Shown here piece after piece: positions 12,439 to 43,781 of a stretch of 64,000 nucleotides of DNA. Position 1 is the stretch's first letter. Every line of letters begins with the position of its first letter. Under the pieces are notes generated by a model that was not told where the DNA came from, did no database searches, and saw nothing but the letters and a program-made list of their open reading frames with translations. Made by a program: the position numbers and the translations under genes. This stretch comes from Marsupella aquatica (taxonomy: Eukaryota; Plantae; Marchantiophyta). Location of the stretch: the NCBI GenBank assembly GCA_973895155.1, contig OZ316893.1:16088645-16152644 (forward strand). Direction: 5' to 3'.

Positions 12439-12520
12439 GGGTTGCTTATGTACATTCGCGCATAAGCACATAGGTGCATAGGTACATATGTGCTTATGCG
12501 CGAATGTACATAAGCAACCC
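12439..12520. repeat. Perfect 34-bp inverted repeat with a 14-nt loop
   Basis: GGGTTGCTTATGTACATTCGCGCATAAGCACATA (12439-12472) and its exact reverse complement (12487-12520). Confidence 0.9.
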
Positions 12521-20760: not shown

Positions 20761-21215
20761 TTGACACCCCTTCCATGTTAACTTATGGGCACTTAACATA
20801 CCTTAAATGTCGTTTGACAAACCTTAATAGCCGTTTGACACCCCAAAGTGTTTTCCAACCCTAAACCGATAAGACCTGCCTCGCAAATTATTTCACAAGT
20901 TAGAGAATCTTTTTGCGAACCTACGGCCTTCGCACTTACTTCGCAAAAACAGAGGCCGAGAACAATTTTTTGGGTCTTTTGCGGGTTGCGATGGCCTTGC
21001 GAAGGGAATAGATTCGGAAGTGCCTCGCAAGTTGCGAGACTATTTACGAGGGCGCGGGCTTCGCAGTTTCCCATGCGTATGTCATCGCAAACCCATTTTT
21101 GAACGGCGTAAACATCGGCGGGAGCTCGCATTCGGGCTCATTTCAGTTTTTGAGCGAGACGAGAAGGGCAGGGGCGCGTGTGACAGTATGAGGGAGACTG
21201 TGAGAGAGGGGAGCT

Positions 21216-23165
21216 ATGGCTACCGGTGAGGGGAGTGGAGGGCAAGGTGGTAGTGGTAGTGGTAGTGGTAGTGGCAATGGGGGAAATCCAGAGAAAGAGA
21301 AGAATGCCTGGGCAGACTTAGTGGCCCAACATCTCAGTGCTGCACAATTGGGAGAAGAGAAGGCTAGAGAGAAAAAAAGGAAGAGAGAGGAAAGAACTAA
21401 GTCGGGAGTTGCCTCTCCTCAAGCCCTAGAGAAGCAGAAGAGAAGAGAGGAGAGAGATTCAATTCGAAAACAGAGGGAGGAGCAACGTCAGAAAGAGGAA
21501 GCAAGAAAAAAACTTCCATTCATTGCCTTGGAGACGAGTGGGACTCCAACTGAGCTAGCGTATGCAGGGGCTAAGAGCACAATCAAGCAGATTATCACAA
21601 GCAATTTCTCACGAGGCATGCAGTGGGGGAAGATTGAGAAGGCATAGCGAAAGAGGGTCATCAACCAAATCAAGGATGCATTTCGCAATGGGCCTGACAT
21701 AGATGAGCAATGGTTGGCAGATAAGATTTCAAATTCTATGTCTCAAATGCGATACCATGACAGGATGAAGATTAGAACCCACCTGAAAGACTTGAGATCA
21801 TACAGGAACTTGCGCAGACCCCTCCACTTCACCGAGGACATCTGGAATTCGTTTTACAAGATTGAGGTGCAAATTAAGGCAGCTCACGAGTTGGAAGAGT
21901 GGAAGGGCAATCTAGATCGAGCCTTGAAAGCAAAGGAGGCTGGGAAGCTCCCCCCTGACCACAACCTGAAGCCACTTGAGCAGAAGGTAGCTGAGATGCA
22001 GAAGGTGGCCGACCAGGAGGGAAAGCCACCCAAGCGTTTCACAGATGCAACCAAATGAGTGAAATCCACCCCCAATCCAGTCCACAAGTTGGGTCAAGGC
22101 GGGCTCCCCGGCCTCAAGTCACACTTTGTGAGTGCCTCTTGCTCCTCCCTAACCTCTCTATTCCTTTCAGAGTTGTGCAATGCAAGTGAATGACATCCCC
22201 GAATGTTCTTGCTGTTGTGCATGCTTGCTTGGTTACTAGTTTAGGGCAACTCTGACACTTAGAATTTTTGGCAAATTTTTAAAAGCTCTCGGGAACACAG
22301 TTTGCGAAGGTGCTGCGATGCGCATTTGTTCGCAAACCCCTCGCAAAGTCTATCATGGACTTTTTCCATTTCAATTTTCCGATGCCTTTGCGAACAAATG
22401 CGCATCGCAAACTCCATCGCAACGCCTTCGCAAAAAATGTGGTTCGCAAGTTGCCATGCTTATAGGTTTGCAAATTTGAATTTTGAAATTTTTTTGGGGT
22501 CGTGTTTAGTAGTTGAGGATTTAGGCGTCACTTGTGGCTATAGGGTATGCTTAAGGGCAAATTTAACCAATTTTAATTGGTTTTATGCATGGCAGTATCG
22601 GAGGTACAAAAGGAAGATATCAAAAAAGCATATTGCGGTGGCGATAGAGCATGGACGAAAGTACCTCTTTGCGATGGTAGATGCCGAGTTGGCTACTATA
22701 AGTGTCTAAGTGTGAACCATATGATTAGCATGCGAACATTGTGAGTGACCCTTTATGTCTTGCGGAAACTAATGATATGTAATGGATGCAGGATTCGGAT
22801 GAGCCTGAGGGGTCGGGTGCTGATGTGAGCAGTAGTGATGACGATGAGGGGGCTACTCCTGGTACTAGTGGTGCTCGGGGGGGAGTAGTCGTGAGGTAGG
22901 TTCTTCCCACCGTGGTAGTGGTGGTAGTTGTGTGTCATCAGCACACGTTGATGACCTGGGGGAGGAGGAGGACCCTGAGGATGAGGAGGAGGAGCAGGAG
23001 GGGCAGGAGGAGCCAGAGGAGTAGCAGGAGCAGGAGCGCCGACGGCCATCACGCACCCGTCACCAACAGGATCCCCGGAAGGATAAGGGCAAGAAGCCAG
23101 CCAAGAAGCCAACCAAGAGGAGCCGCAAGAGCCCATTCTAGTTATTTTGTAGAGATACATGCATG
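21216..23165 (+). pseudogene. CACTA-A second gene (TnpA/Ptta-like), spliced, with premature stops
   Basis: In-frame pieces 21216-21647 and 21714-22058 read on to HKLGQGG. Donor GTGAGT at 22128; further likely exons at ~22596-22675 and ~22792-23165. Acidic and basic low-complexity tail. Confidence 0.6.
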
Positions 23166-26100
23166 AGAGTGACTTGTCATGTCGGAGCTTAGGGTAGGAA
23201 GAGGCAGCATAGGTTTAGAAGGGCGGACCTAGCATCAGATATTCCCCCCTCTTGTCCATGTATAGGGTTCTTTGAAGCCCTATCATTTTGTTCATGCTTT
23301 TCCATTTTATAAAACAACAATTTTGCCTTCCACATTGGGTCCCAAGGAAAACCCCTCGCAAATAATGTATTGAATCCTCTGTGATCATAATTTTGTGAAC
23401 CCTTTAAGAACTCATTCCCATTGCACAATATAAACCCCAAGGCGTCGCACTTTTTGAGTCAATTAACTTCAGAACTTCAGATCCAAATATGTCAGGTTTT
23501 TGTGATACTTCTAGGATCGCACTTTCCTAATCGCACTAGAAGAAACCGGCCCATTCTGAGACCCTGCCTTAAGTGACTCTAATGAGACCTTGCAAAATTT
23601 GTGACTCCTAGGTTTTGGGTGTCATTATAGTTACAAGTTGTGGACTGAGTTTTGGAGAATTCTTGGGAAGTCATTTCTATAACTATTGGGGAAGTTGCAA
23701 CTATAACTAAGTTCAGCCAACAAGAATGAAGTTGTATAAGTGACTCCCTCTACAATAGAGCGTTATATATGTAAGAGAGCCTTAGGGTTTAACACCACAA
23801 TCTAACCACATTTGACCCCGCCCAACACATACCATTTAGGATATATCCTAATTTTCTTAGTTGTCAATGGGACTAAAGGAGATGCCCTCGGGATATTGTG
23901 TGAGTACGCAACTCTACAAGGTAAGTAAAGGTCCTTGGTCAATGTCAATGCTAACAGATCTCAAATATATACTCTACATTAGAGTAGACTGAATTACAAC
24001 ATATGTATGCCACAAGTTTACAAGTGTTACAACATAACAAAATAATCCCAACTAGCTAGGGTCCCACAATGGCATGCATGTAATATTAATTGGACTCATT
24101 TTTGTGTCTAAATGGGTACATTTGAAGTTATCTCCTTGGTTATCTCTAACTCTCACATATGCAAGGGCAGGTTATTTTTACTTATTGCGCGCCATGCCAT
24201 GCATACATACCGTCATGTACCCCCTCCACACATTGTTCCATCTAGATTCCTTTAATTAAAGGTTCAAAATCACCAAGAACTGGGAATGCAGCTGGAACCT
24301 CCATGTACTTGGCATGTCTACATGTTATAATTAGACATATCTGATAATGGCACCCCACACACTATGCTCATGGAATGAGCATAAGAACTTGTGACAGTCC
24401 TTACCTTAATTAATCAAGCAAGGATCTGACGGTCGTAAACTTAATCAAAGGATGATCTGACGGTTGAAAACAAATATGGGCACATTAAACCAGGTTTAGG
24501 GTTTAATGGATTCCTTCACGCCAACTCCCATTGCGCCTTGGATTCCTTTGGATTTGCGGACGAGGAGCTGATCGCGCATTCTTTGCGAGGGAAAAAAGGG
24601 GGCAGTTTGTCGATCACTAAGGCTGAAGCTGCATTGACAAATTGCAATCCCGACTGCAATGGGAGTAGTAGGAGGCAAGAAGAGCGAGTTTAGGGTGTTG
24701 CATAGACAAAACAGAATGTGAGTCGTAGGCAACATTCAGCCATTGTATGTGTTTAGCATTGATCATAGGCACTGTGGGAGGCACTGCAGGAGGCGTTTGC
24801 CACTGCGCAAGGCACTGTAGGAGGCACTTGTTCCTTCAAGCTGGGAGAGTCAATTTGACGTTCAGCTGCAACCTGGGATCGAGAACCAGGAGCTTCTCAT
24901 TGCGGTTTGGTGTGCATTTGGACTGTTCTTGCAAAGTGGGACTCCAGGCCTGGAGACATTGCATTGATCGCCTTTGGATGTACATTGCAGTCCGACTAGG
25001 AGGCTTTCAAGTGGAGCTGGGTTGGAAGTGAGTTGAAGATTGAGTTGCCATCACATTGCAATAGCGGGGGATTGTTGCTCAGCTTCACATACTGCTACGG
25101 ATTACTACGCAGCTTCAGTTTGAGCGGCTTGGTGCTGCATCAGCCCATGTAAGGCTGCAATCCCCTATCTTTGCTATGTGACCTCGCGGCTGCAAGTTTG
25201 GTTGACTTCTTTGTGCTGTGAAGCTGTTTTTGACTCAGGTTCCGGCCAAGTTTCACCAGCGCAAATTTTTCTAAACATGAGTGTGGGCTACAACTGGTGA
25301 GGTGGAAGGGATAAGAAAATGCGCTACCGTCATTGACAACATCTCAACCTTTTACAGTGAGCGCTATTGACATTCGGCCGGCTGTAAGTGTATTTCAAGC
25401 TTGACTTTAACTTGCCATCTGCATGAACCGGCTTGCAATAGATGTTGTAGCTTTTGCTTAGCTGCATTCACCTCCCAAGATGCCCCGTGACATCCAGGTT
25501 TGCACAATGAGATAATAAGGCTGAAATGATAAGGTAGTGATTGCCAATGGATAAAAAGCTTTATGAGAGTTGCTTCAACGTTCAGCTGCAAACTAGGATT
25601 AGGAACCAGGAACTTGTCGCGGCAGTCCAGCTTGTTTACTTGGAGCCGGAGCTGGAGTCAAGTTTCACATGTTTCTTGTTTAGTGACAGAGTACTTCTGA
25701 GAAATGTGACAGCCCCTGTGAGAGCTTTCGGCACCAGTGAGGTAAAGGGTGTTCTTACTCATGCAATAGTCACTTTGACCTTCTGAGTTTCAGCAAATTG
25801 AGTTTCAAGTGCGGGCACTGAGAGTTGACCTGTTTGAGCTGGGGTCACTGAGAGTTGAGCTCTTTGAGCTACGGTTACAGAGAGTTGAGCTGTTTGAGAT
25901 GCGGTCTCATAAGTGAACTAGATCCTCCCCCGTGTAAACGTCTAGCATAGTCACATGTCCAAGCTTTGCTTTTGACTCTGAATATATTCACTGTCAACCA
26001 TTGAAGGAGCTACGTGCATGAATTGTCTACTTATTGGGTTGTTTAGGGATTCAATATACAAAAATGACAACTTGAGTAAGGCAGTCTACGGAGGCGCGAA

Positions 26101-27014
26101 AGAGTCGCGAGGAGTCGAGTTCAGCTACGGCAGTATTCACTTCAGTTGTCTCAATGTGGTTGGCGTGAGCTGCAGGTGAGCTTAGCTGTGTGCACATTTC
26201 ATGTAAGTCAGGTGGTCGGTGTTTTAGGCATTGCGGAACTTGATTGACCACCCCATGGCTAAGGTTTAAGGTGCGGACTACAACAAATATGTGTTGTTGC
26301 TGAAAGTGTTGGTGGTGAGCGACAACTGGTATTGTTTCAGCTAAAGGGAGCACATTGGAGCTTGTGTATCCATGACCTGCGACCGATTGCGGTTGCCTGC
26401 TGTTACAATTGCCGAATCAATCACGCACCCAATCTTGCGGGCAGACACAACTTTGCGGGAGTGTTGAAGGTTTAGGGTGAGCAACAGCGGAGAGCTCATT
26501 GCTTGGTGGCAGGGTTGAAGGTGGATGATCGGGCTGCAAGGCCAACCGGGGACTTGTTTTGCATTGAGCGATTGCTGCGGATTGCTACGCAGCTTCAGTT
26601 AGGGCGGCTTGGTGCTACATCGGCACAGGTAAGGCTGCAATCCCCTATCGACGCGGACTCACCTCGTGACTGCAAGTATAGTTGTCTAGGTGATGTATGC
26701 ATTGCGTGTTTAGGGTCTAGGTGACATCACTGCTAAGCAAAATTTGTGAGCTGCCTAGGTCCATTGCCGAATGTTGCTTCCTTTAAATTACCTGGTGCCT
26801 GCTGTTACAATCGCCTGCTCAATCATGCACCCAATCGCCTGGAGCTCATTTGCCTGGAGCTTCATCCGTCAGATTCAAACTGTTATTGCTGCTCTGCCCT
26901 TTTGCCATGGGTTGCCGGCCTACCGGATGCTATCAACAGATTAAGAACAAGTCATATCCTAAGTCCCGGTGTTGCAGTGATGTCCCCGACCCTAAGATGC
27001 TTTCCAAACTCATC

Positions 27015-27385
27015 TTTCTTGTTTCCTGTTGCTGCTGATGTATGTATGTTCTCCCCTATTTTTGCTTACAGATTGGTCTCTCCACACTTCTTGCTTGACA
27101 TGATTGTTTTGCTCCTCCCTGTATCAGAACATGCCTTGTGCCCGGCGGTGGGGTGGGGGGGTGAACAGACGACCTTAAGGTTCACTACATTTCTAGGAAC
27201 TGTGCATCTTTCAGCTGATTTTAGCCGCAAGTTCCCTTGCTTTCCCCTGTTTTTGCTAAGATCCCTCCCACTAATCACATGCATCTTTCAGCTGATTTTA
27301 GCCGCAAGTTCCCTTGCTTTCCCCTGCTTTTGCTAAGATCCCTCCCCACTAATGACATGCATCCTTTACTTTTCTCGGTGGCCCG
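27015..27385 (+). repeat. ~300-bp segment shared with 61900-62208, with an internal ~76-bp tandem duplication
   Basis: Shared strings such as GATTGGTCTCTCCACACTTCTTGCTTGACATGA and GCATCTTTCAGCTGATTTTA. Confidence 0.85.
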
Positions 27386-28553
27386 TGCGCCTGCCTTCCT
27401 ACTTTCGTTCTTATGGACTCTCCTTAGGTTTTCATTCACCTGGTTTTGGACTTTTTGCTCCGGTGGAATCTGTCTTGACAACTTGTGTTTGTTCTAATTG
27501 TTAATATCTCAAGAGGGTCGTCAACTAAGCTGAAAGGAGTCAAAGCTAACTACAAGCTAGCAAAATAATACAGAGAATGCTCCCAAGTCGAGTCAGGAGG
27601 AAGTTACTAAAACTAGACCTTCACAACTCTCGAAACTGGAAAGTGAAATTCAGCGTGAGACACGTAGCTGAAGGCCACAAGGATAACTATATGGCCACGC
27701 TGTCCCCCATTCAAGTCCAAAGTCCTCTTCAGATTGTCTGAACTCCTATTGAATGTATTGAATAATTATTTCATCACAGAAATTTTCAGAACAAACACGG
27801 AAGCACCAGGGGGCTGAGGATTAGGTATTGAGGCTGAAGACATTGAGGTCATAAACTAGGTGTGGTTCGGGTGACAATGTTAGCAACTGATGCTTCTTCA
27901 GGGGAACTTCCCATGTGCAGTTTATCCACACATGATTGACTTTGGTTCTTGCTGTTTTTCTTTTGGTGTACTCTTGAGTTTGGTGTCACTCTATCCTTTC
28001 CTGTAGCCTCGAAATAGGAACACACCTGCTTAGTGGTCCCCAATCGCCCAATGATTTATAATGACTGTGTCTAGGTGATGTATGCATTGCGTGTTCATTC
28101 CAGAAGAATGAATATGTACACTTTGCACAAACCTGGACAGATTTTGAATGTTATTTATCTGAGTTTCTGTTTGTGAGCTCTGACTTGGAGCCTTAACATT
28201 TGTGTTTCTGTGGGGCTGAGCAGAGTTTGTTCAGTCTAGAAGCTGCTGTACTGAAGTGATCAGCCTCCGGCTTGGAGGTGAATCTTCAATTTTTTGTGGA
28301 TCCGAGTGACTTCTGTCCAACTGAGTTTTGCTTTGTCGGGACGATTGTGTTTGGCTAAGATGCTAGATTGTGGCTTGTCTTCTTGCTTCCAGCTTGTGTA
28401 TTTTCAATTAATAGAAGTTGGGAACGAAGTGATAATTGAATTTCCTTATATTAAGCATCTTCACCTAGAAACTCAATACATAAACTCCAGGATTCCCTCG
28501 GGACATAAAATGAGCCAAATTGTCTCAAAATTGGGAACCTGCACCCGCACTAC

Positions 28554-28896
28554 TCAAACAATTGTGTTGGGCTTGGTGGCCTTGTAAGTCTTCTTTAGCT
28601 TTCGCAATGGAGGTTGAATCTTGCAGTACGTCAAGGGGAACTTGATCTTTGAATCATGGAACTGCTTGGTACTTTCTCGCTTGCACAGAGAGACAGGGAC
28701 TGTCGTAGTCTTCATGATCTGGATGCAAGGGAACCGAACTCTATGACAAGAAGCCATCTCATCATACATCTGCTCTGCAGCTCCGTTTCTTGTGGTATCA
28801 CAATATTCCTTGTACATGTTGTGATAACCTGTACGACTCTGATACGTGGACCCAGATACCGAAGTTCTTAATTGTGGTGGGCTTCTTTTTGAAGAT
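28554..28896 (-). pseudogene. RPL18A: Captured fragment (C-terminal exon) of 60S ribosomal protein L18a/eL20
   Basis: [46 protein letters not shown]...[18 protein letters not shown]. The frameshifted [11 protein letters not shown] start directly follows a CAG acceptor. No N-terminal half is present. Confidence 0.9.
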
Positions 28897-29904
28897 CTGG
28901 TAGACACATTATTCAGCATTTGCTAACTTCAAAACTAGAAGGGTAACACATTAAACAACAGAGAAACTCACAACATCCTCCTTTGGTCCTTTAGAGTCTG
29001 TACTTTGATTCTGAAGTTTGACTGAGTTTTTGTTTACTAAAAGAATGTGACTGTGTAAGAGTTCCGTTTGGCAGTGGATTGGTTGAAGCACTTCATGCTA
29101 GTGTGTTGTCCACAGCTCTTCAACCAGCTTTCGTCTTCCTTGTCTTTCACCACTTACGATGACATCAATTCAGCTAAGACCATAGAAGGTTCCAAAGCAT
29201 CTAACTTGTAAAATCGCATTCTGTTACATCAAGGACTAAGGTGTTGGGTGCCAAAGGAGACAGCACAACAAACACGCTGAAAAGACTTCAGGACTGGGTT
29301 CAACAAGGTAGTGAAGGTGCTTAGAGCCATAGTAAGTATGCATTCTGTATCTTTCTCTATTGATGTGAGCTTGTGCATAATGGGAGTTGTAGTTGGCAAG
29401 AGTTCCAAATATGAATAGATCCAGAAGTATGTGATCATGTACTTGCTCTATAAAGTTCTGAAGATATAAGCATTTTCTGTTAGACCAGGCAACTTGGGAG
29501 TTGGTAAGTGTCACCTGCATCTGAGGGGCTACACCGGGGCATCAGTGGAGGTTCACTTGCACAACACGACAACCAGTGAATTTTCTCTCTGCTGCAACCT
29601 GCAAGGTGAGACTTTCGGTCTTTCTGGATGAAAAAACAGGAGTTTAATATGATTGATATACATGTCCGTCGAGAATATGGGTTTATCACCAAGCTCTTTG
29701 TCTTAGGAAACTCATAAACTCAGAATCAAATATGTACTATGCACGTTTCATGCTATGTGTATACTATGACCTGTAGTTGGAACCAAGACAATGAGTGGGA
29801 ACTGATTAGTTTAGGTGGTTGCTGTTGGCGAGGCAAGTCGACCTCCTGCTCACCTTGCTCATCAAAGGACGTGAACAGAGGACATCACAACGAAAGCAAC
29901 ACTT

Positions 29905-30354
29905 ATGGTGAGGACCCGCAACGCTGAACATGTGCGACTTGCACGCAAGGCAGAGATGTTGCGCCTTGAGTATGTCAGACTTGGGATCCTTCCAGCCCAG
30001 TCTGCATGGTACTTTGAGTACCCTGTTGTTTCTAGGAACAACTACAGCCGGCCTCTACCTGCTTCAGTACCCTTCCCGACATCCTTGGTATTTGTGTCTC
30101 TTGTACATGACCCGCCACAAATTAGGTGCCAAGGGTGTGTACACAGTTGCCAATATGACTGTCCTGCCTGTAGGGCTTCTGGCCCAGAATTGGATGACCG
30201 TTCTCTTGGATGCCGATTTTTGCACAGAGCACAATGTATCATCTGGAACCACTCGCCATCCTGCAGTGTGCCTGGTGATGTCACTTGTCCTGCCCTCCCA
30301 GACCCCACCACCGGTGACTTTGGTGTCTACACATGTTTGGATCACATGCTCTAG
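29905..30354 (+). CDS. Cys/His-rich 149-aa hypothetical protein (possible zinc finger) in CACTA-B
   Basis: ATG-initiated open frame with CQGC..SC..DCPAC...C..H...C...H...C...C...C..H; same strand as the neighbouring cargo ORFs; no family recognised. Confidence 0.45.
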   Translation: MVRTRNAEHVRLARKAEMLRLEYVRLGILPAQSAWYFEYPVVSRNNYSRPLPASVPFPTSLVFVSLVHDPPQIRCQGCVHSCQYDCPACRASGPELDDRSLGCRFLHRAQCIIWNHSPSCSVPGDVTCPALPDPTTGDFGVYTCLDHML

Positions 30355-30970
30355 AGGACCACTTGTCACACCGCATGCACAGACCAGATACCATTGACCT
30401 ATAGCTTAACACTCTGACTTCAACACAGAGGATATTTACTTAAAATTTTGATGTATGAGCAATTTTGGGTCCAGGGTTTAGGGTCAACAGTACATAACTT
30501 ATATCCTATTATGCCTGCACTAAGCAAAATATCCTAATTTAAGAGGCTAGCAAACTCGCATAAAAGTCTCTATTGAAAGACTGCTTTCATGACTGCTTTA
30601 ACCTGGTGAACATTGCAACGTTGAATGAATTAATGGGCCATGTGATAATATGCAAAATGATTTATGCCTCACTTATTTGTCTCAGCCACTATCATAACCT
30701 ATTTAGGATGTATAAATTTCAACCCTTATGACACTGCTTCATACCAATCCTCTTCGAAGAATGCCTGTTTTACATGTCACGACTATTGTATGTGATTCAA
30801 ATGCATGAAATGTTGTTGCAGATCTCCTTTGGTGAATCATAGCCACAATTAAAATTGAGGTGTTGGTGGAGAAATTGTATTAGGGGATCAGTTTTGTGTG
30901 TGGGCTCAACATACCAAAAGTATGTGTGCTCTGCATCCTTGTGTGGCCATTCCAATTCATTGCAGTAGCA

Positions 30971-31113
30971 AATGCCTTTGTACCTTAAATGCTAAATATA
31001 TTTTACTTTCTGTGCAGTCTGCTAAATTGTAGAGTCTATCTAAATGCCTTTGTACCTTAAATGCTAAATATATATTACTTTCTGTGCAGTCTGCTAAATT
31101 GTAGAGTCTATCT
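30971..31113. repeat. 72-bp tandem duplication immediately upstream of the PHD ORF
   Basis: AATGCCTTTGTACCTTAAATGCTAAATATA...GTAGAGTCTATCT at 30971 and 31043. Confidence 0.85.
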
Positions 31114-31124
31114 CATGCGCAGGC

Positions 31125-31805
31125 ATGGCACGGCCTAAAATTCAAGCCAAAAAGCGTGTGACAGAGGTGAGAAACACAGGTGTACTTGGGGCAGATGCTA
31201 CTAACTTCTCTGCAAGTCAGATTTTCCAGAAGGCAGCTCATTGTTGTGCCATTTGTGACGATGGTGGGGGCCTGGTCATTTGTGAGGGCCCTTGCATGAG
31301 GCATTTCCACCTCAACCCGGAGTCTGACCTTGCTGCAGAAAACAACTGTCCAGGGGTGGGCCTCCCGTCAACACACCAGGGAGACTGGATGTGCACTGAT
31401 TGTTTGGAGAAGCAGGCTAAGTGTGCACAGTGTGGGAAGTTGGGGTCCTATGAGGGCTCTGTTGATGCTGCAGCAAATGTTAGGAAATGTCCAGACCATT
31501 TTTGTGTGAGATTTTTCTGTTTTGAGTGTTTGCCTGCTCATGCCACAGCTTGCCCACTTCATAGGTGCAAGGCATGTGGTGAGCATGATGATGACTACTG
31601 GACTGACATAGTCCACTGTGCTAGGTGTCCCACTATGTGGCACTATCATTGCCTGAAAGATCATCAAGCAGAGGGTTATGCTTGTGACAGAGAAATCTAT
31701 GATCACTCTGCACATGGTGTTGATCGATGGATATTTTATTGTCATCGCCATGCCATTGATCCTACCTCGCGCACTCCTGTGAGAGATCACATATCTTGGC
31801 TGTGA
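31125..31805 (+). CDS. Stand-alone EDM2/NSD-type composite PHD-finger protein (226 aa) in CACTA-B
   Basis: CAICDDGGGLVICEGPCMRHFH...C..C...C..CGKLGS...CPLHRCKAC...CARCPTMWHYHCL...IFYCHRHAID....TPVRDHI follows the EDM2 PHD region as recalled, including its distinctive YCxxHxID...TPxRDH tail. Confidence 0.85.
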   Translation: MARPKIQAKKRVTEVRNTGVLGADATNFSASQIFQKAAHCCAICDDGGGLVICEGPCMRHFHLNPESDLAAENNCPGVGLPSTHQGDWMCTDCLEKQAKCAQCGKLGSYEGSVDAAANVRKCPDHFCVRFFCFECLPAHATACPLHRCKACGEHDDDYWTDIVHCARCPTMWHYHCLKDHQAEGYACDREIYDHSAHGVDRWIFYCHRHAIDPTSRTPVRDHISWL

Positions 31806-32391
31806 AGCTGAACATTGTACATGCACAGTGCACCTGATGTGGATGTACTATTTTTTGAGATTGCAGAGATTCCAATTTTGAAAAGGAGTTGGGTAGGCGA
31901 GTTTATATAGGCAGCACTTATCTTGTGCTCTGGCGTCAGTGGCTGGGTACATGCCTATACAAACTTATCCTTACAAGCCTTCTTGGAAGTATTTAGGCTG
32001 AGTGGTCATTTTCATAAACACTTTCATCACACTGCTAAATTAAAACAGGACTTCTAAGTTGTAAGCGTATAAATTATCAGGCATGCAATTAATCAAATTG
32101 CCCTATAAGTTTGTCATTGAATGTATCCTCCTTTACAACAAAATATGTATGTGCCATGACAAGTTGGTTGCACTTCATTTCACCACGGATATGGATTTTG
32201 TAGTATATATTCAAACAATGTCCTGCATCCGTGCAGGTGCCTAGTACGTATTGTTCACATATCCCTTGTACCTATCAAAATCGGACCTGAGCACCAGTGG
32301 GCCAGATCAACTCAAAAAGCAGGAATTTTGTTGTCCTTGTATTGTCAGGTGAACCCATTCTTCCAAAATTCACTGTCATCACGTAGGGTGT

Positions 32392-33270
32392 GTGTACATG
32401 GAGCCTGGTAAACGTAGAAAGTGTGACCACCCAGCAGTGTTTACAGGGGTCAGAGCGATTTTGGTCCATGGCCAGCATGGGTTGACCAAAGTGCATTGGC
32501 CAACTGTACAGAAACGATTCTCTGAGCTCCATGGCACTGTAGTTCAGGACATCACTCCAGAGACTACACATGTTGTTGCAGGGACATGGCTATCAGTGAT
32601 AAAGAAGTGGTCATGGTCCTACATGAATTCTGCAATTACTAAGCAAGGCCTAAAAGTAGTTGAGGCCTCTTGGATCACAGATTCCATAGCACATAAGATT
32701 GTACAGGATACTGAGCAATATGAGTTGTGGGAGGATGAAGAAGCTACTGCATCAGCTTGGGCTGAACAAGAAGTCTGGGAAGCAAAGGCACGGCTTGCTG
32801 ATCTCCAATATGGACCTGTACTCAACAAAGGACAGAGCTCTACAAGGCTGAAGAGTATGTTGGCTGAGGAGACGAAGCAACCAACCCCCATTCTGAAAGG
32901 GCTGAGCATGGTATTTGTGGAGGCGGGAATTGGAGAGGTTAAGTGCAAAGTGTACAAGTCCACAGTGCTTGACCTAGGTGGGACAGTGGAGGAGAATATA
33001 ACAGAGGACACCACTCATGTCATTACTAAGTCATATCCCAAAGCCTGCCGCAAGTTTGGGAAGGGAGACATTCGCTTTTATGTCATGTCCCATAATGTGT
33101 TTGTGGTTTCATATGCTTGGCTTGTGGAATCAGTAGCAGCTGGGAAGCGTCAAAACCCAATGGACTATGATCTTTTTGAGGCCTGGCCACGGAAGGGTCA
33201 GGATCCTTACAGAGAGGACTATGAGACAACAAGTGAGGAATGGGTCATTAGCGATTCTGAATCAGAGTGA
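32392..33270 (+). CDS. Tandem BRCT-domain protein (292 aa), DNA polymerase lambda-like BRCTs, in CACTA-B
   Basis: Two repeats: FTGV...HGTVVQDITPETTHVVA...VVEASWITDSI...QYEL and LKGLSMVFVEAG...LGGTVEENITEDTTHVI...VSYAWLVESVAAGKRQNPMDYDL. Acidic tail; uninterrupted ORF. Confidence 0.85.
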   Translation: MYMEPGKRRKCDHPAVFTGVRAILVHGQHGLTKVHWPTVQKRFSELHGTVVQDITPETTHVVAGTWLSVIKKWSWSYMNSAITKQGLKVVEASWITDSIAHKIVQDTEQYELWEDEEATASAWAEQEVWEAKARLADLQYGPVLNKGQSSTRLKSMLAEETKQPTPILKGLSMVFVEAGIGEVKCKVYKSTVLDLGGTVEENITEDTTHVITKSYPKACRKFGKGDIRFYVMSHNVFVVSYAWLVESVAAGKRQNPMDYDLFEAWPRKGQDPYREDYETTSEEWVISDSESE

Positions 33271-33703
33271 GGAGTAGTAGCATCAGTTTGGACACAAGTT
33301 TTTTTGTATAAATCAGATCATTGAAATAAATGTGATCTTTGAACTAATGTACCTTGTTATGGTTGGTGGCAGTTGGGCTTATTTTACTGTTGGCGGATTG
33401 TTGTTTCCTGCTGCCTGGGGGTGTCACTGTAAACGTACATGCAGAGGCGGTACATTTGAGGACAGCGGAGGAGGTGGTGACACCCTCCAACATTTAGAAA
33501 TTTTGTGTCATTCACTTGACAATAGGTACACTACTTGCGAACCTGTTTTTTTCTTTTGGGGTGGTTTAGGGTTTGTGAGAATTTAGTACACGTTATGTTA
33601 ACTCTTTTGGCAGATACAGTCAGGGATATATGGAACACAAATACCACCATTAGGCATCCTTGTTCACTGCTGTCCATGACTGCAGAGCTCCCAGCCTGTT
33701 ACA

Positions 33704-36700
33704 ATGCACCCTGGTCACCACCCTCCCCAGACCCAGCCCAGGGCACAGGCACTGCCTTTGCATCATCCCACAAGGATATCACGCCATGATAATAAGCTTT
33801 GGCAGCGTGAAAGGTTACGAACCAGACTTTCAGGAGCCAGTAGGATGAGATGTCCTTGTGCAATCTGCCAAGGATCCCGTACCAGGGGTCTGAATGAGGT
33901 TTGGCGGCATATCGCGGTTCATGGAAGAGATCCACGACATCGAGTTTGGAATGATCCTGCAGAGGAAGATTCTTCCGACGAGGAGTGGAGGTTAGAATTT
34001 GATGCTGCCAATGCTGCAAGACGGGCAAGTGAGGTTCTGCCTGGTGCATTTGAAAATTTGTAGCTGGTCTCTGTGGGTTGTCAGCTCTCCAACGGGATGG
34101 TGCTCAGGCAGCACCACGTGACGAAGGAATTCATGTGGAAGAGATGGTGAGAGACATCTTCCAAGACTTGGATGCATTTCATGATGGGCTGGACAATGAA
34201 GAGGATACGGCTGCAGATGCAAGTGTGCCCCCTGTCGAAGAGCCTCTTGATGAGTTTGAGATAGGGCAGGAAACCCCTGGGCATGATGGGATGTTTGGCT
34301 CTCCCCTGCAAATACAGGAAGGCAGGAAGTCTTTGTACCCCGGTAGCAAATGTTCTAAACTGGGATTTGTCATCATGTTCCTGAACATTTGCGGCAACCA
34401 CAATGTCCCCAACGTTTTGGTTTCTGAGTTGTTGGCATTCTTGCGAACAACTGTGCTACCAGATGGTAATATTTTGCCCAAGAACATGTACGAGGCAAAA
34501 AGATGCATATCTAATCTTGGATTGAACTATGATTCGATCCATGCCTGTCCTGATGGGCATGTTCTTTTCAGAAAGGAGTATAAAGAATCGTTGACATGCC
34601 CTAAGTGTGGGAAGCACAGGTATCGGAACTCAGGAAAGTCTATGGTTCCCGCCAAGGTACTTCGTCATTTTCCACTCATTCCCAGACTTCAGCGGATGTT
34701 CAGAAGCCGTGCCATCTCGGAGATGATGACTTGGGCAACTGACAAGAAAAGTGATGATGGGCTACAACGACATGCTGCAGATTCAAGGCAATGGAAACTC
34801 ATAGATGAGATGTATCCCGAATTTGCTGCTGAGCCGAGGAATGTCAGACTTGGGCTGTCATTGGATGGGGTAAACCCATTTGGAGACAAGAACAACAAAT
34901 TTTCATGCTGGCCTGTAACTATTTTGAATTATAACCTTCCTCCTTGGATGACTACAAAGCGATTTTTTGTTCTGATGGTCCTACTGATACCAGGGCCAGA
35001 CAGTGCTGTATCTGCCAACATAGATGTGTTTCTGGCTCCCCTAGTGGAGGAATTGAGAAAGCTTTGGGAGGAAGGAGTTCTCACATATGATGTCCTACAG
35101 AGGCTTGGGAGGTTAAACCCATTCATCCTTAGAGCCATTGTCATTCTGACTATAGCTGACTACCCAGCCCATGGGATGATATCAGGCCAAACAACAAAAG
35201 GATATTGTGCTTGTACTATCTGTGGGCGCAATGTCACCAGTGAGTACTCCAGAGCCCTGCAGAAAGTGATATACATGGGCCATCGTCGTTTTCTGAAGAC
35301 AGATCACCCTTACAGAGAAAGACAGGCACTGATTGCACACTTTGGCAATGAGATTGAGCAACGTGGACCCCCGGCACGAGTGACCAAAGAGGAGATCAGG
35401 CAGTGGGGAGCACTGAGGGATGACTATATCAAACGAGGGGGCAGGGAAGATGGAGTGAGTGATCCAATAAAGCGATATGGTGTAAAAAGACTGAGCATAT
35501 TGGACTTGGAGCTCAAGTACTGGAGGGTAAGCCTCTTGGAGTTGATGCTAATTGGGATACATGTTTTGGTTCAGAGCATGTGCATTCATTTCGAAGAGAG
35601 AGACTAAACTTGAGGCATTTCCTGACGCTTTTGCATTGCAACGATGCAGGAGTTTGAGCCAAGCAAACATAACATTGATGTTATGCACATTGAAAAGAAT
35701 ATTTGTGAGAGTCTACTCAGATTCTTGTGTGGAGAGAAAGACACTGGTTCAGTGAGATTGGATCTTGAACAGAGGGGAATGAAACCCCATCTTTGGTTGA
35801 GGCCACATGCCCACAGAGCTGATGTGCTCTTGAAGTACCAAGCGCCCTATGTTCTGACAGACACAGAGTGGGAACTATTTGTGCAGAGGTTGAGTTCTTT
35901 GAAGGTTCCTTCAAACTATGGCAGTGCTTTCAAGAAGCATATCATGACTAGAAAGCTTGGTAGTATGAAAAGCCATGACTACCATATGTTGATGCAACAG
36001 GTGTTGCCTTTATGCCTGAGGGGCCTGTTGCAGAAGCCTGTTCGTACTGTGATCATGCGACTCAGTGATGTGTTTCGTCGTATTTGTGTGAAGGTTTGGG
36101 ATGAAACACACTTCCCACAACTGACAGAAGATGTCGCTCAGGTGCTGTGTGACCTGGAGATTTATTTTCCTCCCGCATTTTTTGATGTCATGACCCACCT
36201 ACTTGTCCATGTTGTGGAAGAGCTACACCAATTTGGGCCTGTGAGTGCTCGTTGGTTGTACCCTTTGGAACGGTACATGAAGCTACTCAAAGGTCACGTG
36301 AGAACATATTACAAACCTGAAGCAAGCATGGCTAAAGGTTACATCAAGGATGAGACTCTGGGATTTCTGACCGAATACATAGCACAATATGAGCATGTGA
36401 AGACCAGGGTGTGGAATTCTGATGAGGAGGAAGGGGTGGTAGGTGAAGTACTGGAAGGGGCTGCAACCACAAAGAACCTGACCATATCTATGAGAGACTT
36501 GGCACATGACTTTGTATTGCACAACACTGTGGTGATGGAACCCTGGATACAGTGAGTGCATACATGTGCTATAATCCAGTTCATGAGCTTAAATGTTGTG
36601 TTCGTGTGGTTTTCTCCTTCAGCCTGTTCATGTTTACCCAAGCTAATGCTGTGTGGTTGTTCGTTCAGGGAGTATGAGTCATTGAAGGCGGCCCATCCCA

Positions 36701-37434
36701 CTGCAGGAACAACTTTTCCAGGTTTCATGGAGTGGATCAGAGTGGCAATTAGAGAGCATCACGAGACCCACCCAGACATGGATGCAGATGTTTACCTACT
36801 GTCTAATGCCCCTAGCCTGAAAGTGAAGACTTACAAACGGATGAGAGCATATGGGAATCACTTCCGAGTGAAGGATGGTGACAGTGCCTACAGGGTGACG
36901 AATGACTGCGGGCTCATCACTGTATTTGAGCAACAGAGCCACAATCACGACAGGGCCTGGATGGAGATGGGATATGTGGGAGAATTAGTTGACATATGGG
37001 CTCTGGACTATGGGGCGGTGTCCAGTCCTGTGATTCTTATGAAAGGTTCATGGGTGCGGCAGGATTGGCTTGGTAACAGGGCTACCATGAAGAGAGACAA
37101 CGACGGTTTCTTGCTGGCCAATTTCAGAGGGAAATTGCCCGAATGGTCTGAGCCATTTGTGTTTCCTAGTCAGGTGGAGCAAGCTTTCTTCCTGGATGTG
37201 GAAGACTCCCCAGGTTGGCGTGTAGTGTGTCATAAACAGGCCAGGCAACGCCGGATGGAAGGATCAAACCTTGAGTTTCATTTACACTCTCATAGTGCCT
37301 TTGATCGTCGGCGTTCAGACCAAGTGCCTGTAGTTCATGATAGCGGGGACTTCATTCCTGTGACAAGGGTAGATGCATTTGCTGAAGGAGGCGAATTCAG
37401 AGATGCAGATGCCAACAGTGTGCCTGTGCCATGA
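33704..37434 (+). CDS. CACTA-B TnpD-type transposase; predicted exons 33704-34028, 34085-35526, 35650-36551, 36669-37434 (1145 codons)
   Basis: CPCAIC...H N-terminal domain, IHACPDGH, LGLSLDGVNPF, YNLPPW, ADYPA, DVMHIEKN, KSHDYH, FFDVMTHLLVH, WLYPLER and EPFVFPSQVEQAFF. Stop-free only if a short 56-nt GT-AG intron (34029-34084) is spliced. Confidence 0.85.
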
Positions 37435-37590
37435 GTAATGTGAATTGTTTGCATAGACATTAGTGAGGGGAAGGATGTGTAATAAAGTAATTTTGAAGCA
37501 ACACAGATGTATGGATGGATGCCTGGTGATTGTGGTTGCATTGTGTTATACGGGGTGACCATAGATGACATGTTTTTGTGGTCCAGTAGG

Positions 37591-40500
37591 ATGGAACAGA
37601 GTGACACAGAGATGTGTGAGTATGAAAGGAAAGCTATGGAACAACGAGCATACGTGAAAGCCAAAATCGCAGAACTGGATCTGGAAAAGGATGTGGTTGA
37701 ATTGTAAGGGAACGATTCTCAACTACACCCCTCCGCTGAGTTTGTGTGACATGAATAGTTCAATGTGGCACTGAAATTGTGACTGTATTCTCATATTGGA
37801 ATGTCGCAGAGCCACAGCATTTTCAAAGAAACAAAAGGAGTACGCAAGAAGGGTGACCAGCACTATCTCTGGGCCTGTGCGTCGGAGTGACAGGTTGAGC
37901 AAGAAGGTCGTACCTACAATGGCAGAATGTGGAGATGACATTGATGCTGCACAGGTGGGTGCAGACACTAGACAAGAAGATGCAGATGATGAGTATTTTC
38001 CAGAGGAAATGGATGAGGATGGGGGTTATGAAGATGAATACATTGCAGAGCAGCCCCAAAAGAAACATGTAAGTAGTTTTCCCAACAAGGTTTTGAGTTA
38101 AAAACTCTTGTTTAGAGGTTTCATATGTTCAGTACTACACATATGTACCTTGCTTAGTTCCTGACATTGTAGTTGGTGATGTGATGCAGCGTCCTGCCAG
38201 TTCTGTTTTGCCTTCGAAGCCTGTGCATGCACCATACCAGTAGGGGGGGCTGACCTCTGATCAAGGTTGGCGAGGTGGTAGTAGTGGTAGATCCCAGGCT
38301 GGTGCCCAATACTATGGCAGGGGGCAAGCTCTAGGTTATGCCCGTGGTAGAGGCAGAGCAGGTCCAAACCCACAATCTCGTGGGTATGGACGTCCACCTC
38401 AACCGTGGGGATGTGAGTATATATCTATATGCCAGTTCTTTGTGAAGGCATGGCACTCCTGAATTTCAGACTGCATATCAATTTTTGACATTGTTTGGGA
38501 TGTATTGGATTCAGACAACATGAAATTCTGTCCACCTGCCATTGCATGCAGATTCTGCCCAACCTGATTGGGCAAATGCTAGTAATGATCAGTTCCAATG
38601 TCCACAAGGACAGACATGGGTTGAACCAGGTTGGGAGGATGGTGGTGGGTCGTGGAATGAACAAGGTTGGGAAGGTGGTGAAGGTAATTGGCAGGGATAT
38701 CAAAATTCAGTACCTACAAACGCTGGAAGAGGAGCAGGTAATGTCTGATCTTGTCAGCAATGGAAGAACTCATTATATGTGGAGTCCATTCACGTGGGGG
38801 GGACTCTGCACATGTATAATGATAGAAAATGTATGTGTGCAGGTTGGACAGTCGAACCATCGACTCAAGTATTCACTAATGCCCCTATGCAGATGCAGCA
38901 CGGAAGGGGGACAGGTATGTCGGTGAATGTTCAGTTGTTTTCCTACAGTTTGTACTTAGTTTTCAGTACATATGTTTGCACACACATACCTAGAAAGTGA
39001 CATCATCCGGCCCCTGTACTAGGCTGGACAGGTGGTCCAGGGTCGCAACAATTTCAGAGTGCAGTCCCTGCACAGGCATCTACAGGCAGAGCTACAGGTA
39101 TGTATGTTTGAAGAATTTTTCTTGAAGTGAAGCATTGAATGTTGCCGTCATCCATTCTGCTATATGTAGTTCTCAAGCATGAATGGCATTGTATTTTCCC
39201 AGGTGGCTTCAGAACCCCAGGTAGGGTGAATGAAGGGGTGGCCAATACAACGCCCAGTACTACCGAGAGCAGTGCACGAGGGGAGGTGACAAAGAAAGGG
39301 AACGTAAAGTTGAATGAGAGACAATGGGTGGATGCTGAGTGTCCTCGCAAGAACCGATGGCATGCTGATTTGAAAGCTGAAGTATTGCGTTGGTTAGATG
39401 TGAGTGTTATTAATTTTAAAAAACAGCATCCAAAAGATTGGAAGACTGTATGTGAAAATGTTGCTGCCAAATGGAATTATGTGGGCAGTGATGATGGCGT
39501 GGACATAGGTTGCCTAGAGAGTACAGCAGGTAAAATTATCAAGCAAGAGAGGTGGAGAATGCATAAGGCTTGGAAGGAAGGTGGGGAGAAGCCAGATATG
39601 CCTCCACCAGCCAGTTGTGATGATAAAGTGTGGGCAAGGTTAGTAGCTTATTTTGTAACAGATGCTTCAAAAAAGAAGAGTTCACAGATGACCGAGGCCA
39701 GGTTGAGTGTTCAGAACCCTAATCTGACAGGAAGGACCGGCACTGCACCGACAGCTAAACGTTTGGTAAGAATGAATGGCCTAGCTATGTAATTTATGCT
39801 ACACTATGTACTATTTTTTAGTGTAAACCCATACATGTAAACTTTGTTTTTTAGTGTACGTTCCCTGAATATTGATCGATAACTTGTGTTTGCCATGCAT
39901 GTGCAGAAAGCCCAATTGGGGCAAAGCCCTTCAAAAGAAGAGTTGAGGGCTGAAATTGTGAACACCCGGGCTCAAGAGGGTGCATCTGAATCCTCCAAGC
40001 ATGTAAGTTATATGAGTTCTGATTGGTAATTGAATGACCTGCGTTGAATTTCAGGTGTACACTGTATATAACATTGATTGTGCATATATTGCCCAACATT
40101 TCATATGGAGTGATTGAACCTATACCCCTGTGTCATGTAGGGAGGTGGATCTTCACTTACAGAGATAAGTGGTCGTTTGAAGGCTGTCGAAACATGTCTT
40201 CCAGAGATCAATGAACGTTTGAATTCATTGACTGACTTGTTCCATGTGAACTTCAAGACATTAATGGAAGCTGTTGTGTCGGTGAGAGATAAAATTGATT
40301 CCAATTCTGCAGGAGTTCCACCATCACCACTTGAGGTGGCAAAGTCGATGCACTCTTCTGGCATGCCAACGACATGTAGGCTTGAAGGTAAGGCCTTTAC
40401 AACTGTGTGGGATATGATTATTAAATGTATAGTTTGAATTGACATTGTTTGTTGAATGTGTTATTTTCAGTAACATATATTGTGGTTGTTGTGTCCATAG

Positions 40501-41297
40501 AGAATAAGACAGGTGCTACAGAGAAGAAGTATGAGAACCTGGCAAATACTCGCTGTAATTTAGAGGCAACAAAGTTGCAGTCTGTACAAGCAACTTGTTT
40601 GACAGAGGGCAGTCAACCATGTTTGGATGAGGATGACATTGGCAAGGGAGTGGATGATATCAATGTTGGGGCAAATGAGGATATCAGCAAGCATGACAAT
40701 GATACCATTGAGCCAGATTCATGCTATGTAGATCTTGACTCCATTGCAGAGATAAATGATTTGCAGAATGTATCATTCTCAATGACAGGTGTGCCTCTTG
40801 TTGAGATAAATCCAACCAAAGAGTTAGTTGGTATGACACTCCCAGGTGATGAACCTGCTACTGTGACAGTCCTAACAGAGGAACCTACTGAGCCTAGCTT
40901 CACTACTGTGAAGAGAGGAAGCATGCGCACACGAAGCAAGTCTGCTGGTGGGAGCAGAGCCACGTCAAAGGTTTCATACAAACCTCCAAGAACAGTGCTG
41001 GCAGAAAGATCTAAGGTGGAAGTGGGGAAAGCACCTAATGCTGAGGGACAAAGTGGCTTGTTAGCTGTTGATGAGAGTGGAACACGAGTAGGATTTGCCA
41101 GAGTGCAGGTTGGTTCCACAACGTTCCATGGCAAGAGGATTCCCCCAGGTTATTCAGTAGTGTTAGTCACATTACTAGTGAAACCTAAAGCTGTCCTTCC
41201 CATTCCAAACACAAATGATGATCCTCCTCAAAAGACACTTGGAGATGCTGCAGGTTCTTTGGTATTATGGCCAAGCAAGTTCATAGAGGATCCATAA
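37591..41297 (+). CDS. CACTA-B second gene (TnpA-like; Ptta-type middle domain and Tnp1-like C-terminal domain), multi-exon, possibly disrupted
   Basis: Exons 37591-37703 and 37810-38068 splice in frame. Motifs VWARLVAYF...KKSSQMTEAR...TGRTG (~39630-39745) and FHGKRIPPGY...LPIP...TLGDAAGSLVLWP. One candidate exon near 38188-38410 contains stops. Confidence 0.65.
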
Positions 41298-43781
41298 CAA
41301 TGTCATGCCATTATTTGTTTGTAGTGTGAGTCATGTTATGTAGATTTTAGATGTCAAGAAGCAGTACAAGAATCATGTCCTCTTGGAGATTCATAGTATC
41401 ATGCATGTGCTTTCAGTTATCTCATCCTACAGTCATCAATTATGAGTTCCTGTTTTGTCTAAATTACATTGATCACATTGTAAACTATTCCATTGGAATT
41501 CAAATGATCTTCATTTTTTAGCAAGATTGTGATTGTGTTTAATTCTTATGAATGTTTTATGTAGGATCTGCTTATATGATGCTTTGTTTCATGTGGATGT
41601 CATTCATGCTATGTTCATTTCTTGTATTCAATGTGTTATATTTCTAAAGTTAGAACATCAGGTTTCTATGTATTGTAATGTCGAGTGCTCTCTCTTCTTA
41701 TGAACTGTCCCTCTGTGTTCATTAGTCATGGTTATAACTTGCATGTGAACCTTATTAGTTATAAACATGAGTATATAGAGTCCCAAATGGTTCTGTTGTG
41801 TGACGCGGGCCAGGGTCTCCATTGGTCTCTCCTGTGACACTAAATAGTCACACGCTAGTCGTTGTTGAATGCGGGTAAGTCATGTATGTGACTTACGATG
41901 TGACTCGCTGAAGTCATATTGCAGTCACGTCGAAACAAGGCTAGACTCCACAATAAAGTCACAGATCAGTCACAAATGGGTATCAAGCAAGTTGCAAAGC
42001 CCAGTATCAATAGTGACTTCCATTTTTTGGTCTCAACTTTTGCAACTCCAAGGGTCACAGCGTGGGTCAAGTCACGTTGAGTCACAATGAAGTCACATGA
42101 GCCAAAATGAGTCATATATTGCGGTCTCAGTTCACCTCGGATTCTTCTAGTGTCGAAACCGTTCACAAACTTCTAAACTCACCGGTATCGCTCTTTGTCA
42201 TACAATCCCCATCAAAACAATTGAACCAGTATCTTTCGCAAATATGATGCGATGGTAAATCCTTCTCAAATATCGACGCCCGCGCGGGACGTGTGCGTGT
42301 ATGTTTGCGAACCTTATGCGACGTATAATGGATTGCACAAGTATTGAATCTTGCAAACCTCTCAGCTTCGCAGTTTGCCATGGTGTTGCGATGCCGTTGC
42401 GATGGTCCGCGTGCGAAGTTATTAGGTTCACAAAGTGCAAAGGTGGTGCGATGCGCGTATGTTCGCAATGGCCAGAATTATGAAAATCAGGGGCTTGTTA
42501 GTTGCGATGAGATTGTCTTCGCAAAACCGGCCGATAGTGTTGTAGTGGAAGCTGAGCAACGCTGCGATTGAGGAAGGTCCTTCTGGGTTTGGTCTATTGC
42601 TGAACCAATAGTCAAGGAAGGCCTGCACCCTGGCGGGCATGTCGTCAAAGTGATGACGTTGTAAGTCCACCGTGCCAGGGATCTTGAAAACCTTGTCCGG
42701 GAGTTGGAGGAGTGCTTCTCCGAAGCCGAGGTACTTGGTTCCCTCAAAGAAGAACTTGGAGATCTCTGCATCCCGACAATACTTGCTCTCAAATGGAAGG
42801 TTGAGGTCATTGTTGTAATGAGAGCGCCCATTCAATCGGATAAGCCGTTTGTAATGCCTTTCGGCTTCATACTTTTGCGGGTTGTGTTTGACAAGTGAGT
42901 CGCAAGATGGTTACCAATGTACAAGAATTGGTACCAAAAGCGAATAGCCAAACTGGACATAATCATGACAGACATATGACAAAGTGTCAAGGGCTGGCTG
43001 AATCACTAAGTGCGCAAGGGGGCCGAGCTCAAAGCTTGCGCAAGGAAAGAACTGGTAAATTTGAGGCGGGGAAGAGTCCACCTTTTATACCCCTATCGTG
43101 CACGGATTGATTGGCCCTTCTTGCTCACGATAGGCCAAGCTTGTCATGCTCAAGGCTTACCAATCACTCCTTTAGTCCGGGTCAGAGCGTGGCAAAGACA
43201 GCCATAACTCGCCCCTAATCCGGCAGTATGTCAGGTGCCGTGCCGCCAGCCCAAGCATAAACTCCCATCATTACTAAAACTGATCCTAAGCATCATGACT
43301 AGCTAATTTTGTGACCTTATGCTAATAACTATGGATTCCTACGTCTACCTCATACGTGCTTACCACGGATTAAGCCGTATTACTCATTACCAGCCATACT
43401 GGCGGCGTCACACTGGTTCACTAAAGAACATGTAGGCCTATTTAATTGTAAAAAATACTTTTCAAAAGTTTTTAGGGTTTTTTTTAGTAAAAAATGACAA
43501 AATTTAAAGAAAAAATGGTTTTGCAAAAAAACAATTGTCACTTATAAGTTAGGGGGTCAAACCCTAAAACATCGCATGCAATGTATGGCCCTCCATATAG
43601 TGACCCCCCAAGCGCTATAAACAAAGTATGATGCGCATCCCTCCTTGCCCAAACCCTCAATTACTAACAAAGTCATGTCCCACGGGTTGGAAACACACGT
43701 AATGACAGGTTCTTTGGTGTTAGTGACAATAACAATGAGTCTAAGTTTCACTCACTAACTATAACTTGCTAATGAGTATAG

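Follow-up and report, generated by a model that had tools for sequence, protein, structure and literature searches.

A CACTA transposon of Marsupella aquatica with three conserved accessory genes and a candidate shared leader

How can a DNA transposon that carries five closely packed genes, two for transposition and three others, express them all? This question is raised by a stretch of 64,000 nt from Marsupella aquatica (Marchantiophyta; contig OZ316893.1, positions 16,088,645 to 16,152,644), hereafter called the window, which contains a CACTA element, CACTA-B, with an orphan gene, a PHD gene, a BRCT gene, a TnpD transposase gene and a TnpA-like gene. The original prediction, made from the letters alone, was that one upstream promoter and leader may be alternatively spliced and polyadenylated to each of the five open reading frames (ORFs). 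Based on the signals recognizable in the DNA, we consider that CACTA-B may indeed express all five genes with a single promoter, located near 29.45 kb, and a shared, ATG-free leader, a reading to which we assign a probability of about 0.5.

The CACTA-B element and its five genes

CACTA-B is a multi-copy DNA transposon of the En/Spm type. Its terminal inverted repeats (TIRs) begin with CACTA and agree with each other at 13 of 14 nt, the end letters being CACTAGAAGAAACC on the left (at 23534) and CACTAGAAGAATCC on the right (at 42152), each adjoining the TCG of a target site duplication (TSD). The empty site is present in contigs of two of four runs (X1 and X2), which bridge 23534 to 42157. Together, the TIRs, the TCG duplication and the empty-site contigs define an element of 18,619 bp (Table 1). 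Both ends also carry subterminal repeats of an AGTCACA-type 7-mer, with 8 copies in the two 400-nt ends, a count that has no shuffle control. The depth of family contigs is greater over the cassette than over the region 23.7-26.3 kb, which bears on the existence of a multi-copy family and not on its copy number.

Table 1. Coordinates (positions in the window) of CACTA-B, its host element and the features discussed in the text
Feature	Position	Strand	Remarks
CACTA-A	14024..42547		Host element of CACTA-B; CACTAC ends, TSD GAA
CACTA-B	23534..42152	+	18,619 bp; lies within CACTA-A, in its right subterminal region
Left TIR of CACTA-B	23534..23547	+	TSD TCG just before (23531-23533)
Right TIR of CACTA-B	42139..42152	-	TSD TCG just after (42153-42155)
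Ribosomal protein L18a fragment	28557..28922	-	Captured antisense passenger in CACTA-B; PF01775 E 3.4e-18
Candidate cassette promoter and leader	29449..29605	+	Predicted; TATA-like box at 29449
Orphan accessory ORF	29905..30354	+	149 aa with 10 Cys and 6 His; acceptor candidates at 29776 or 29878
72-bp tandem duplication	30970..31113	+	Upstream of PHD ORF; doubles acceptor-like TGTGCAG
Stand-alone EDM2-type PHD module	31125..31805	+	226 aa; acceptor AG (31122) ends 2 nt before ATG
Twin-BRCT ORF	32398..33270	+	290 aa; acceptor candidates at 32386 and 32348
TnpD transposase gene	33704..37434	+	Predicted introns 35527-35649, 36552-36668; candidate acceptors 33685 or 33613
TnpA-like gene	37591..41297	+	10 predicted exons, 876 codons; acceptor 37589 (or 37586)
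Spacer word GTATAAAT	30710, 32067, 33306	+	One per cargo spacer, nowhere else in CACTA-B
AATAAA words	33325, 37481, 41952	+	Read as poly(A) signals

The five genes lie on the + strand at the places originally indicated, separated by spacers of 770, 592, 433 and 156 nt, in this order. They had been described as five ORFs, a description that holds for the three intact cargo ORFs and has to be given up for TnpD and TnpA, which are intron-containing genes. The TnpD gene matches PF02992 (E-value, E, 1.4e-70) and DUF4218 (E 4.8e-28), with weak matches to PF13963 and DUF4216, and has one frameshift near 34058. The TnpA-like gene, whose match to PF03004 (E 1.5e-4) is below the gathering score, has predicted GT-AG introns of 105-141 nt and a single in-frame stop, in exon 3. 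The observed/expected CpG ratio (o/e) is as low in the spacers of the cassette as in its ORFs (0.22-0.34). Some family contigs skip several segments within TnpD; we attribute this to diverged relatives that align in part, and not to splicing. GT..AG ends were found at 0 of the 15 joints listed out of 98 contig joints, and at 0 of 15 listed out of 25 in a second set, which has no bearing on expression.

Whether the cargo is idiosyncratic to this copy was a point on which the original prediction depended. It is not: full-length relatives were found for all three cargo proteins (37-82% identity), albeit as proteins from read assemblies, which come without genomic context, and contigs from six public runs span the cassette. 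The listed family indels spare the ORFs: between 29500 and 33703, 0 of 10 fall inside the ORFs that make up 48% of this stretch (binomial p 0.0015; best 12 of 168 and best 12 of 32 rows, adjacent rows merged). This conservation is weakened by two observations, namely that neighbouring indel rows may represent single events even after merging, and that one family contig has 38 gap letters over mostly the PHD ORF. The listed substitutions in the cargo ORFs number 10, of which 4 are synonymous and 6 are not; with five of them falling in a pair of adjacent BRCT codons, they are too few and too clustered for judging selection.

Judged by these comparisons, the three cargo genes are intact, conserved accessory genes that form a real cassette. 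It is highly improbable that they are passively captured host fragments of the Pack type, silent and functionless. CACTA-B does hold such a passenger, the L18a fragment, which is uninterrupted and has no intron, and this copy has a single lesion in TnpD and another in TnpA. However, the three cargo ORFs are intact and spared by the listed indels, they have relatives of the same length down to 37% identity with conserved Cys and His residues, and the stand-alone PHD proteins form a clade of their own on a long branch (see below).

In run X6, which derives from another organism (organism D), one contig (record 30) matches the PHD ORF from 31216 onward with 5 differences in 155 nt; its part upstream of the match is unrelated and ends in an acceptor-like word. 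Contigs of this run pile up on parts of the PHD gene (30968-31631) and of TnpD (34288-37607), with little on the orphan gene and the spacers, hinting that organism D holds a related family with different cargo.

Leader, splice acceptors and poly(A) signals

The region proposed to contain the promoter and leader starts with a TATA-like box that has no ORF before it to terminate. It is followed by 149 bases without an ATG (29479-29627), and the predicted donors at 29504 (98th percentile) and 29606 (99th percentile) rank highest among those up to 280 nt away from the first acceptor. When either donor is joined in silico to 29878, 31122, 32386, 33685 or 37589, the resulting 5' untranslated regions (UTRs) are free of upstream ATGs.

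All five AG words that had been proposed as acceptors are present at their coordinates. They were scored with a weight matrix trained on 14 predicted introns of the window, a small set in which none is observed, and ranked among the 1311 AGs of the element. The acceptor of PHD (31122) reaches the 99.6th percentile, that of TnpD (33613) the 94th, and those of BRCT (32386) and TnpA (37586) the 90th, with the adjacent 37589 at the 96th; that of the Cys-rich orphan gene (29776) reaches only the 70th. Since some AG is found near 60-72% of control ATGs, a bare AG carries little meaning. As a set, nevertheless, the best acceptors before the five starts outscore those before 2642 control ATGs (Fisher p 0.0006-0.0016 with three widths of the search interval). 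This enrichment stems mostly from PHD, and the acceptor of the orphan ORF alone shows no significance against the control ATGs (p 0.25-0.6). A branch-point motif is present in 4 of 11 introns, versus a background of 24%, an uninformative result.

Thus, the claim that each start is preceded by an acceptor stands insofar as the set is non-random, and has to be corrected for two of the sites named. Downstream of 29776 there is an upstream ORF of 4 codons, and 33613 is followed by two upstream ATGs, one of which overlaps the TnpD start out of frame. The alternatives 29878 and 33685 avoid upstream ATGs, and 33685 also outscores 33613. On the strength of these scores, introns probably end just before the five starts.

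Several observations weigh against one leader for all five genes. The sites 29878 and 33685 were chosen partly for their lack of upstream ATGs, which makes that half of the test circular, and 29878 scores poorly (-0.4). In CACTA-A, the element into which CACTA-B is inserted, the acceptor immediately before an ATG, at the start of a zinc-ribbon exon, has a matching local candidate intron of 102 nt, so that the pattern of an acceptor before an ATG need not mean a distant leader. Local donors that lie 90-175 nt before the acceptors of PHD, BRCT, TnpD and TnpA have likelihood ratios of 0.05-1.5, values at which short local introns are still possible and this test does not discriminate. The pair 29606 to 29776 has a likelihood ratio of 13.6 and can be used both by a shared leader and by separate promoters. 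Furthermore, the first four ATGs all have a TATAAA 330-456 nt upstream, a distance in keeping with separate promoters. Finally, TnpD and TnpA are separate head-to-tail genes in four Arabidopsis EN/SPM families (2, 5, 6 and 9; PMC13547354), and CAGE (cap analysis gene expression) revealed independent start sites in the split-gene families (10.64898/2026.08.24.746577).

These last points form the basis of a serious rival explanation that we nevertheless consider somewhat unlikely, in which CACTA-B contains tandem separate genes that have their own TATA promoters (29449, 30711, 32068 and 33307) and short 5' UTR introns, and in which the cassette is operon-like in layout only. Besides the Arabidopsis precedent, it can draw on the placement of TATAAA on the + strand of CACTA-B, where four of the six copies are those upstream of the first four ATGs. 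A TATAAA was found in all four upstream regions in 4 of 3000 shuffles, the distance band having been drawn after the fact. The word GTATAAAT is confined to the cargo spacers, and local donors of medium strength are present at intron-like distances at 30920 (131 nt without the 72-bp duplication), 32237 and 37487. However, 8 of the 9 5' UTR models that start from a TATAAAT in a spacer contain 2-6 upstream ATGs, and TnpA is preceded by just 156 nt without a TATA-like word. Although GTATAAAT is the only 8-mer common to the three cargo spacers, 14.5% of shuffles also have some 8-mer in common. In addition, its copy at 33306 resembles a 3' end, as it lies 37 nt past the BRCT stop, between a stretch of Ts and an AATAAA. 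We read GTATAAAT as a predicted poly(A) signal, which it resembles more than a promoter; along with the TATA-like box at 29449 and the ATG-free leader with its two donors, it lends modest weight to the shared leader. An AATAAA is also located in the gap between TnpD and TnpA, 108 nt ahead of the acceptor.

A mixed layout, in which TnpD and TnpA have a shared leader, TnpD transcripts possibly extending into the TnpA exons, and some of the cargo genes have their own promoters, appears rather doubtful to us. In the maize En/Spm element, TnpA and TnpD are produced from one spliced unit, with TnpD located within intron 1 (PMC2613891). This precedent and the tight TnpD-TnpA gap concern those two genes only, and the cargo spacers are longer and contain TATA-like words, as a mixed layout would have it. 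The strongest acceptor, however, precedes the PHD ORF, for which there is no good local donor in this copy.

In the reading that we prefer, with one promoter near 29.45 kb for all five genes, the short ATG-free leader, ending at donor 29504 or 29606, would be spliced to one of the five acceptors. It would be joined to every ORF across predicted introns of ~0.3 to 8 kb, and each gene block would terminate at its own predicted poly(A) signal. This reading also draws on the maize En/Spm precedent, on the tight TnpD-TnpA gap, on spacers that are no richer in CpG than the ORFs, and on an exon of the neighbouring CACTA-A that is in phase with two acceptors (see below).

The cargo proteins

The PHD ORF encodes NSD-type PHD fingers (best Pfam E 4.9e-5, below the gathering score), and 5 of 124 candidates proved to be homologues (37-82% identity, 217-245 aa, 52 invariant columns). 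The profile search with this protein, the only one of the three cargo searches performed without a length limit, yielded 566 proteins at E 0.001. Among the best 150 of these, stand-alone proteins of ~220 aa come first and are followed by long proteins, and 70 of the 150 bear the EDM2 C-terminal motif. Names were retrieved for 10 clusters, two of which are called ENHANCED DOWNY MILDEW 2, and the named long matches nearest the PHD family include proteins of Marchantia, Riccia and Calypogeia (5 of these 10), which fits a bryophyte host.

The PHD protein is colinear with the PHD cassette of a protein with EDM2 architecture (30% identity over 210 aa, pairwise E 1e-24). This likeness to EDM2 includes the H-x-I...TP-x-R-D-H-I tail, which is present in the protein of the window and in 53 of the 70 listed proteins that bear the EDM2 C-terminal motif; 5 divergent rows, inspected one at a time, lack the tail, and one of them bears that motif. 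Solved NSD2/3 structures match the PHD profile only up to position 171 of 217. Unlike EDM2, which has ~800-1600 aa, the PHD protein lacks the N-terminal RFD-like and C-terminal methyltransferase-like parts: the RFD-like domain PF12047, present in L001 and several long matches, was not found in the 226-aa protein nor in its 5 homologues, and the ORF stops 2 residues past the PHD tail. In a midpoint-rooted tree of 38 rows, hand-picked from 151 with the whole cassette, 10 stand-alone proteins form one clade (100/99) with a long branch, which is separated from the EDM2 rows with a support of 91/82 (unstarred). The tree does not resolve this clade as part of EDM2, a point that counts against the proposed link with that protein. 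By these comparisons, the PHD protein is an EDM2-type module, not an EDM2, and its nature as a stand-alone EDM2-type PHD module is what is new here.

Short grass-like, EDM2-related proteins with PHD fingers only (~300-390 aa) are encoded on metagenome contigs (L002-L007), and P0036, which is similar to them, joins the seed-plant EDM2 proteins in the tree, apart from the transposon clade. The 11 loci of the metagenome scan correspond to host EDM2-like sequences and unrelated PHD proteins, with no related element among them. In viral contigs, 0 of 128 and 0 of 2 candidates were confirmed.

In the case of the orphan protein, 2 of 23 candidates are homologues (56-59% identity in the alignment), with the MVRTR start in common. 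It has no Pfam or Atlas match, from which neither a new fold nor an absence of relatives follows, and its predicted model (mean predicted local distance difference test score, pLDDT, 59) gave no Foldseek match at E 0.001 and a best fold-comparison Z of 4.1. Most simply, it would be a zinc-binding accessory factor. The third protein has two BRCT domains (PF00533, E 2.6e-13) and 2 homologues among 1261 candidates (54-60% identity, 294-295 aa); the pLDDT of its predicted model is 36. No donor gene could be named for it, the matches to Rtt107, BRCA1 and ligase 4 being weak (E 0.0009-0.01) and the Atlas scores <0.9.

EDM2 binds H3K9me2 (PMC7529245); within heterochromatic introns, it represses the use of proximal poly(A) sites (PMC7529245, PMC10241880). 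The PHD protein, which does not have the other domains of EDM2, might recognize H3 tails in the methylated chromatin of the element itself. It might then either promote read-through beyond proximal poly(A) sites or serve as a decoy for the EDM2 of the host, and the BRCT protein might bind phosphorylated repair factors at excision breaks. A more far-reaching scheme, to which we give little credence, is that of a transposon with five alternative last exons, in which a trimmed EDM2 reader, encoded by the element and bound to its H3K9me2 chromatin, would move polyadenylation away from the proximal cargo exons and towards the distal TnpD and TnpA, and the BRCT protein would guide repair where the element excises.

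Surroundings of CACTA-B and known systems

The TnpD proteins of CACTA-A and CACTA-B are 40% identical over 286 aa; hence, the two elements are distinct families, and the view that two CACTA families are present at this locus is borne out. The alternative use of SET and transposase exons that had been proposed for CACTA-A also finds support in the sequence: the zinc-ribbon exon (19356-19126, - strand; PF13963, E 0.0015) is in phase 0 with the SET acceptor (19013) as well as with that of TnpD (18047), and the SET reading frame opens right at its acceptor. A decayed, divergently oriented multi-exon gene at 21204-23100 (+) of CACTA-A is TnpA-like by eye and has no convincing Pfam match. Between the two CACTA-A genes, at 19790-20720, there is a C/A-rich array of three 143-nt units with telomere-like AAACCCT words. 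CACTA-A itself sits in another repeat, and its flanks match 455-1142 in inverted orientation.

Within CACTA-B, the region 24450-26700 has the highest CpG retention, a telo-box at 24497, repeated 115-nt units, thin coverage by family contigs, and very strong donors at 24718, 25149, 26203 and 26629, and it is a possible further upstream leader. A piece of the 5' region of the element (27010-27381) resembles 61894-62210 (81-89%), located upstream of a host R2R3-MYB gene (58777-61400, -) that marks the host as a plant and has three predicted introns and no CpG depletion (o/e 0.88). At 9850-11289 (+), an open frame of 356 codons without a Pfam match, with GCTTATG-type repeats at 9384-9471 and 12342-12506, is possibly part of another element. 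An Rfam scan gave 0 matches.

Like maize En/Spm, Antirrhinum Tam1 and soybean Tgmt*, CACTA-B has CACTA ends, subterminal repeats and a multi-exon TnpA-like gene with TnpD upstream of it; those elements derive two products from one unit by alternative splicing (PMC2613891). Unlike them, it has three further intact protein genes upstream of TnpD, and its splicing is predicted. Both layouts, one spliced unit or separate tandem genes, occur among the Arabidopsis En/Spm families (PMC13547354; 10.64898/2026.08.24.746577), and with its non-overlapping head-to-tail TnpD and TnpA, CACTA-B resembles EN/SPM2, 5, 6 and 9 (PMC13547354). The main texts of these two sources mention no PHD or BRCT cargo for those families, the word 'PHD' occurring 0 times.

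The red-algal Plavaka elements, which belong to the EnSpm lineage, have a conserved cassette of three accessory genes, PAG1-3 (10.1101/2025.02.11.637652); elements of the EnSpm kind with accessory genes are therefore already known. As in CACTA-B, this cassette combines chromatin-related domains with one unknown gene, PAG2 having an adenine methylase and a SET domain and PAG3 a ParB-like domain and a 2OG oxygenase (10.1101/2025.02.11.637652). In a comparison covering PAG2 and PAG3, their domains were not found in the cargo of CACTA-B, for which Pfam gives PHD and BRCT. CACTA-B thus differs from Plavaka in carrying an EDM2-type PHD, a twin-BRCT and an orphan gene, in a land-plant TnpD/TnpA element. 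No description of a CACTA/EnSpm element with PHD and BRCT cargo was found in the literature searched, most subscription journals and Repbase being outside its reach, so that absence from print is not established. The VANC and TnpA anti-silencing factors, the former from VANDAL elements, are likewise accessory proteins that are encoded by transposons and have relatives among the chromatin regulators of the host. Their activity has been shown and is directed to DNA in a sequence-specific manner, whereas the PHD protein of CACTA-B is a predicted histone reader.

Counter-silencing proteins encoded by transposons are few so far (VANC, TnpA and the red-algal PAGs). Encoded by a CACTA family, a conserved stand-alone PHD protein of the EDM2 type would represent a new route, based on the reading of histone marks and on RNA processing instead of on DNA sequence, and the stand-alone PHD protein would be a natural minimal version of the EDM2 reader. 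If the shared leader is verified, the two-product design of En/Spm would extend to five products, with poly(A) choice as the control point. If, in addition, the scheme of five alternative last exons were true, the silencing mark itself would set which transposon proteins get made.

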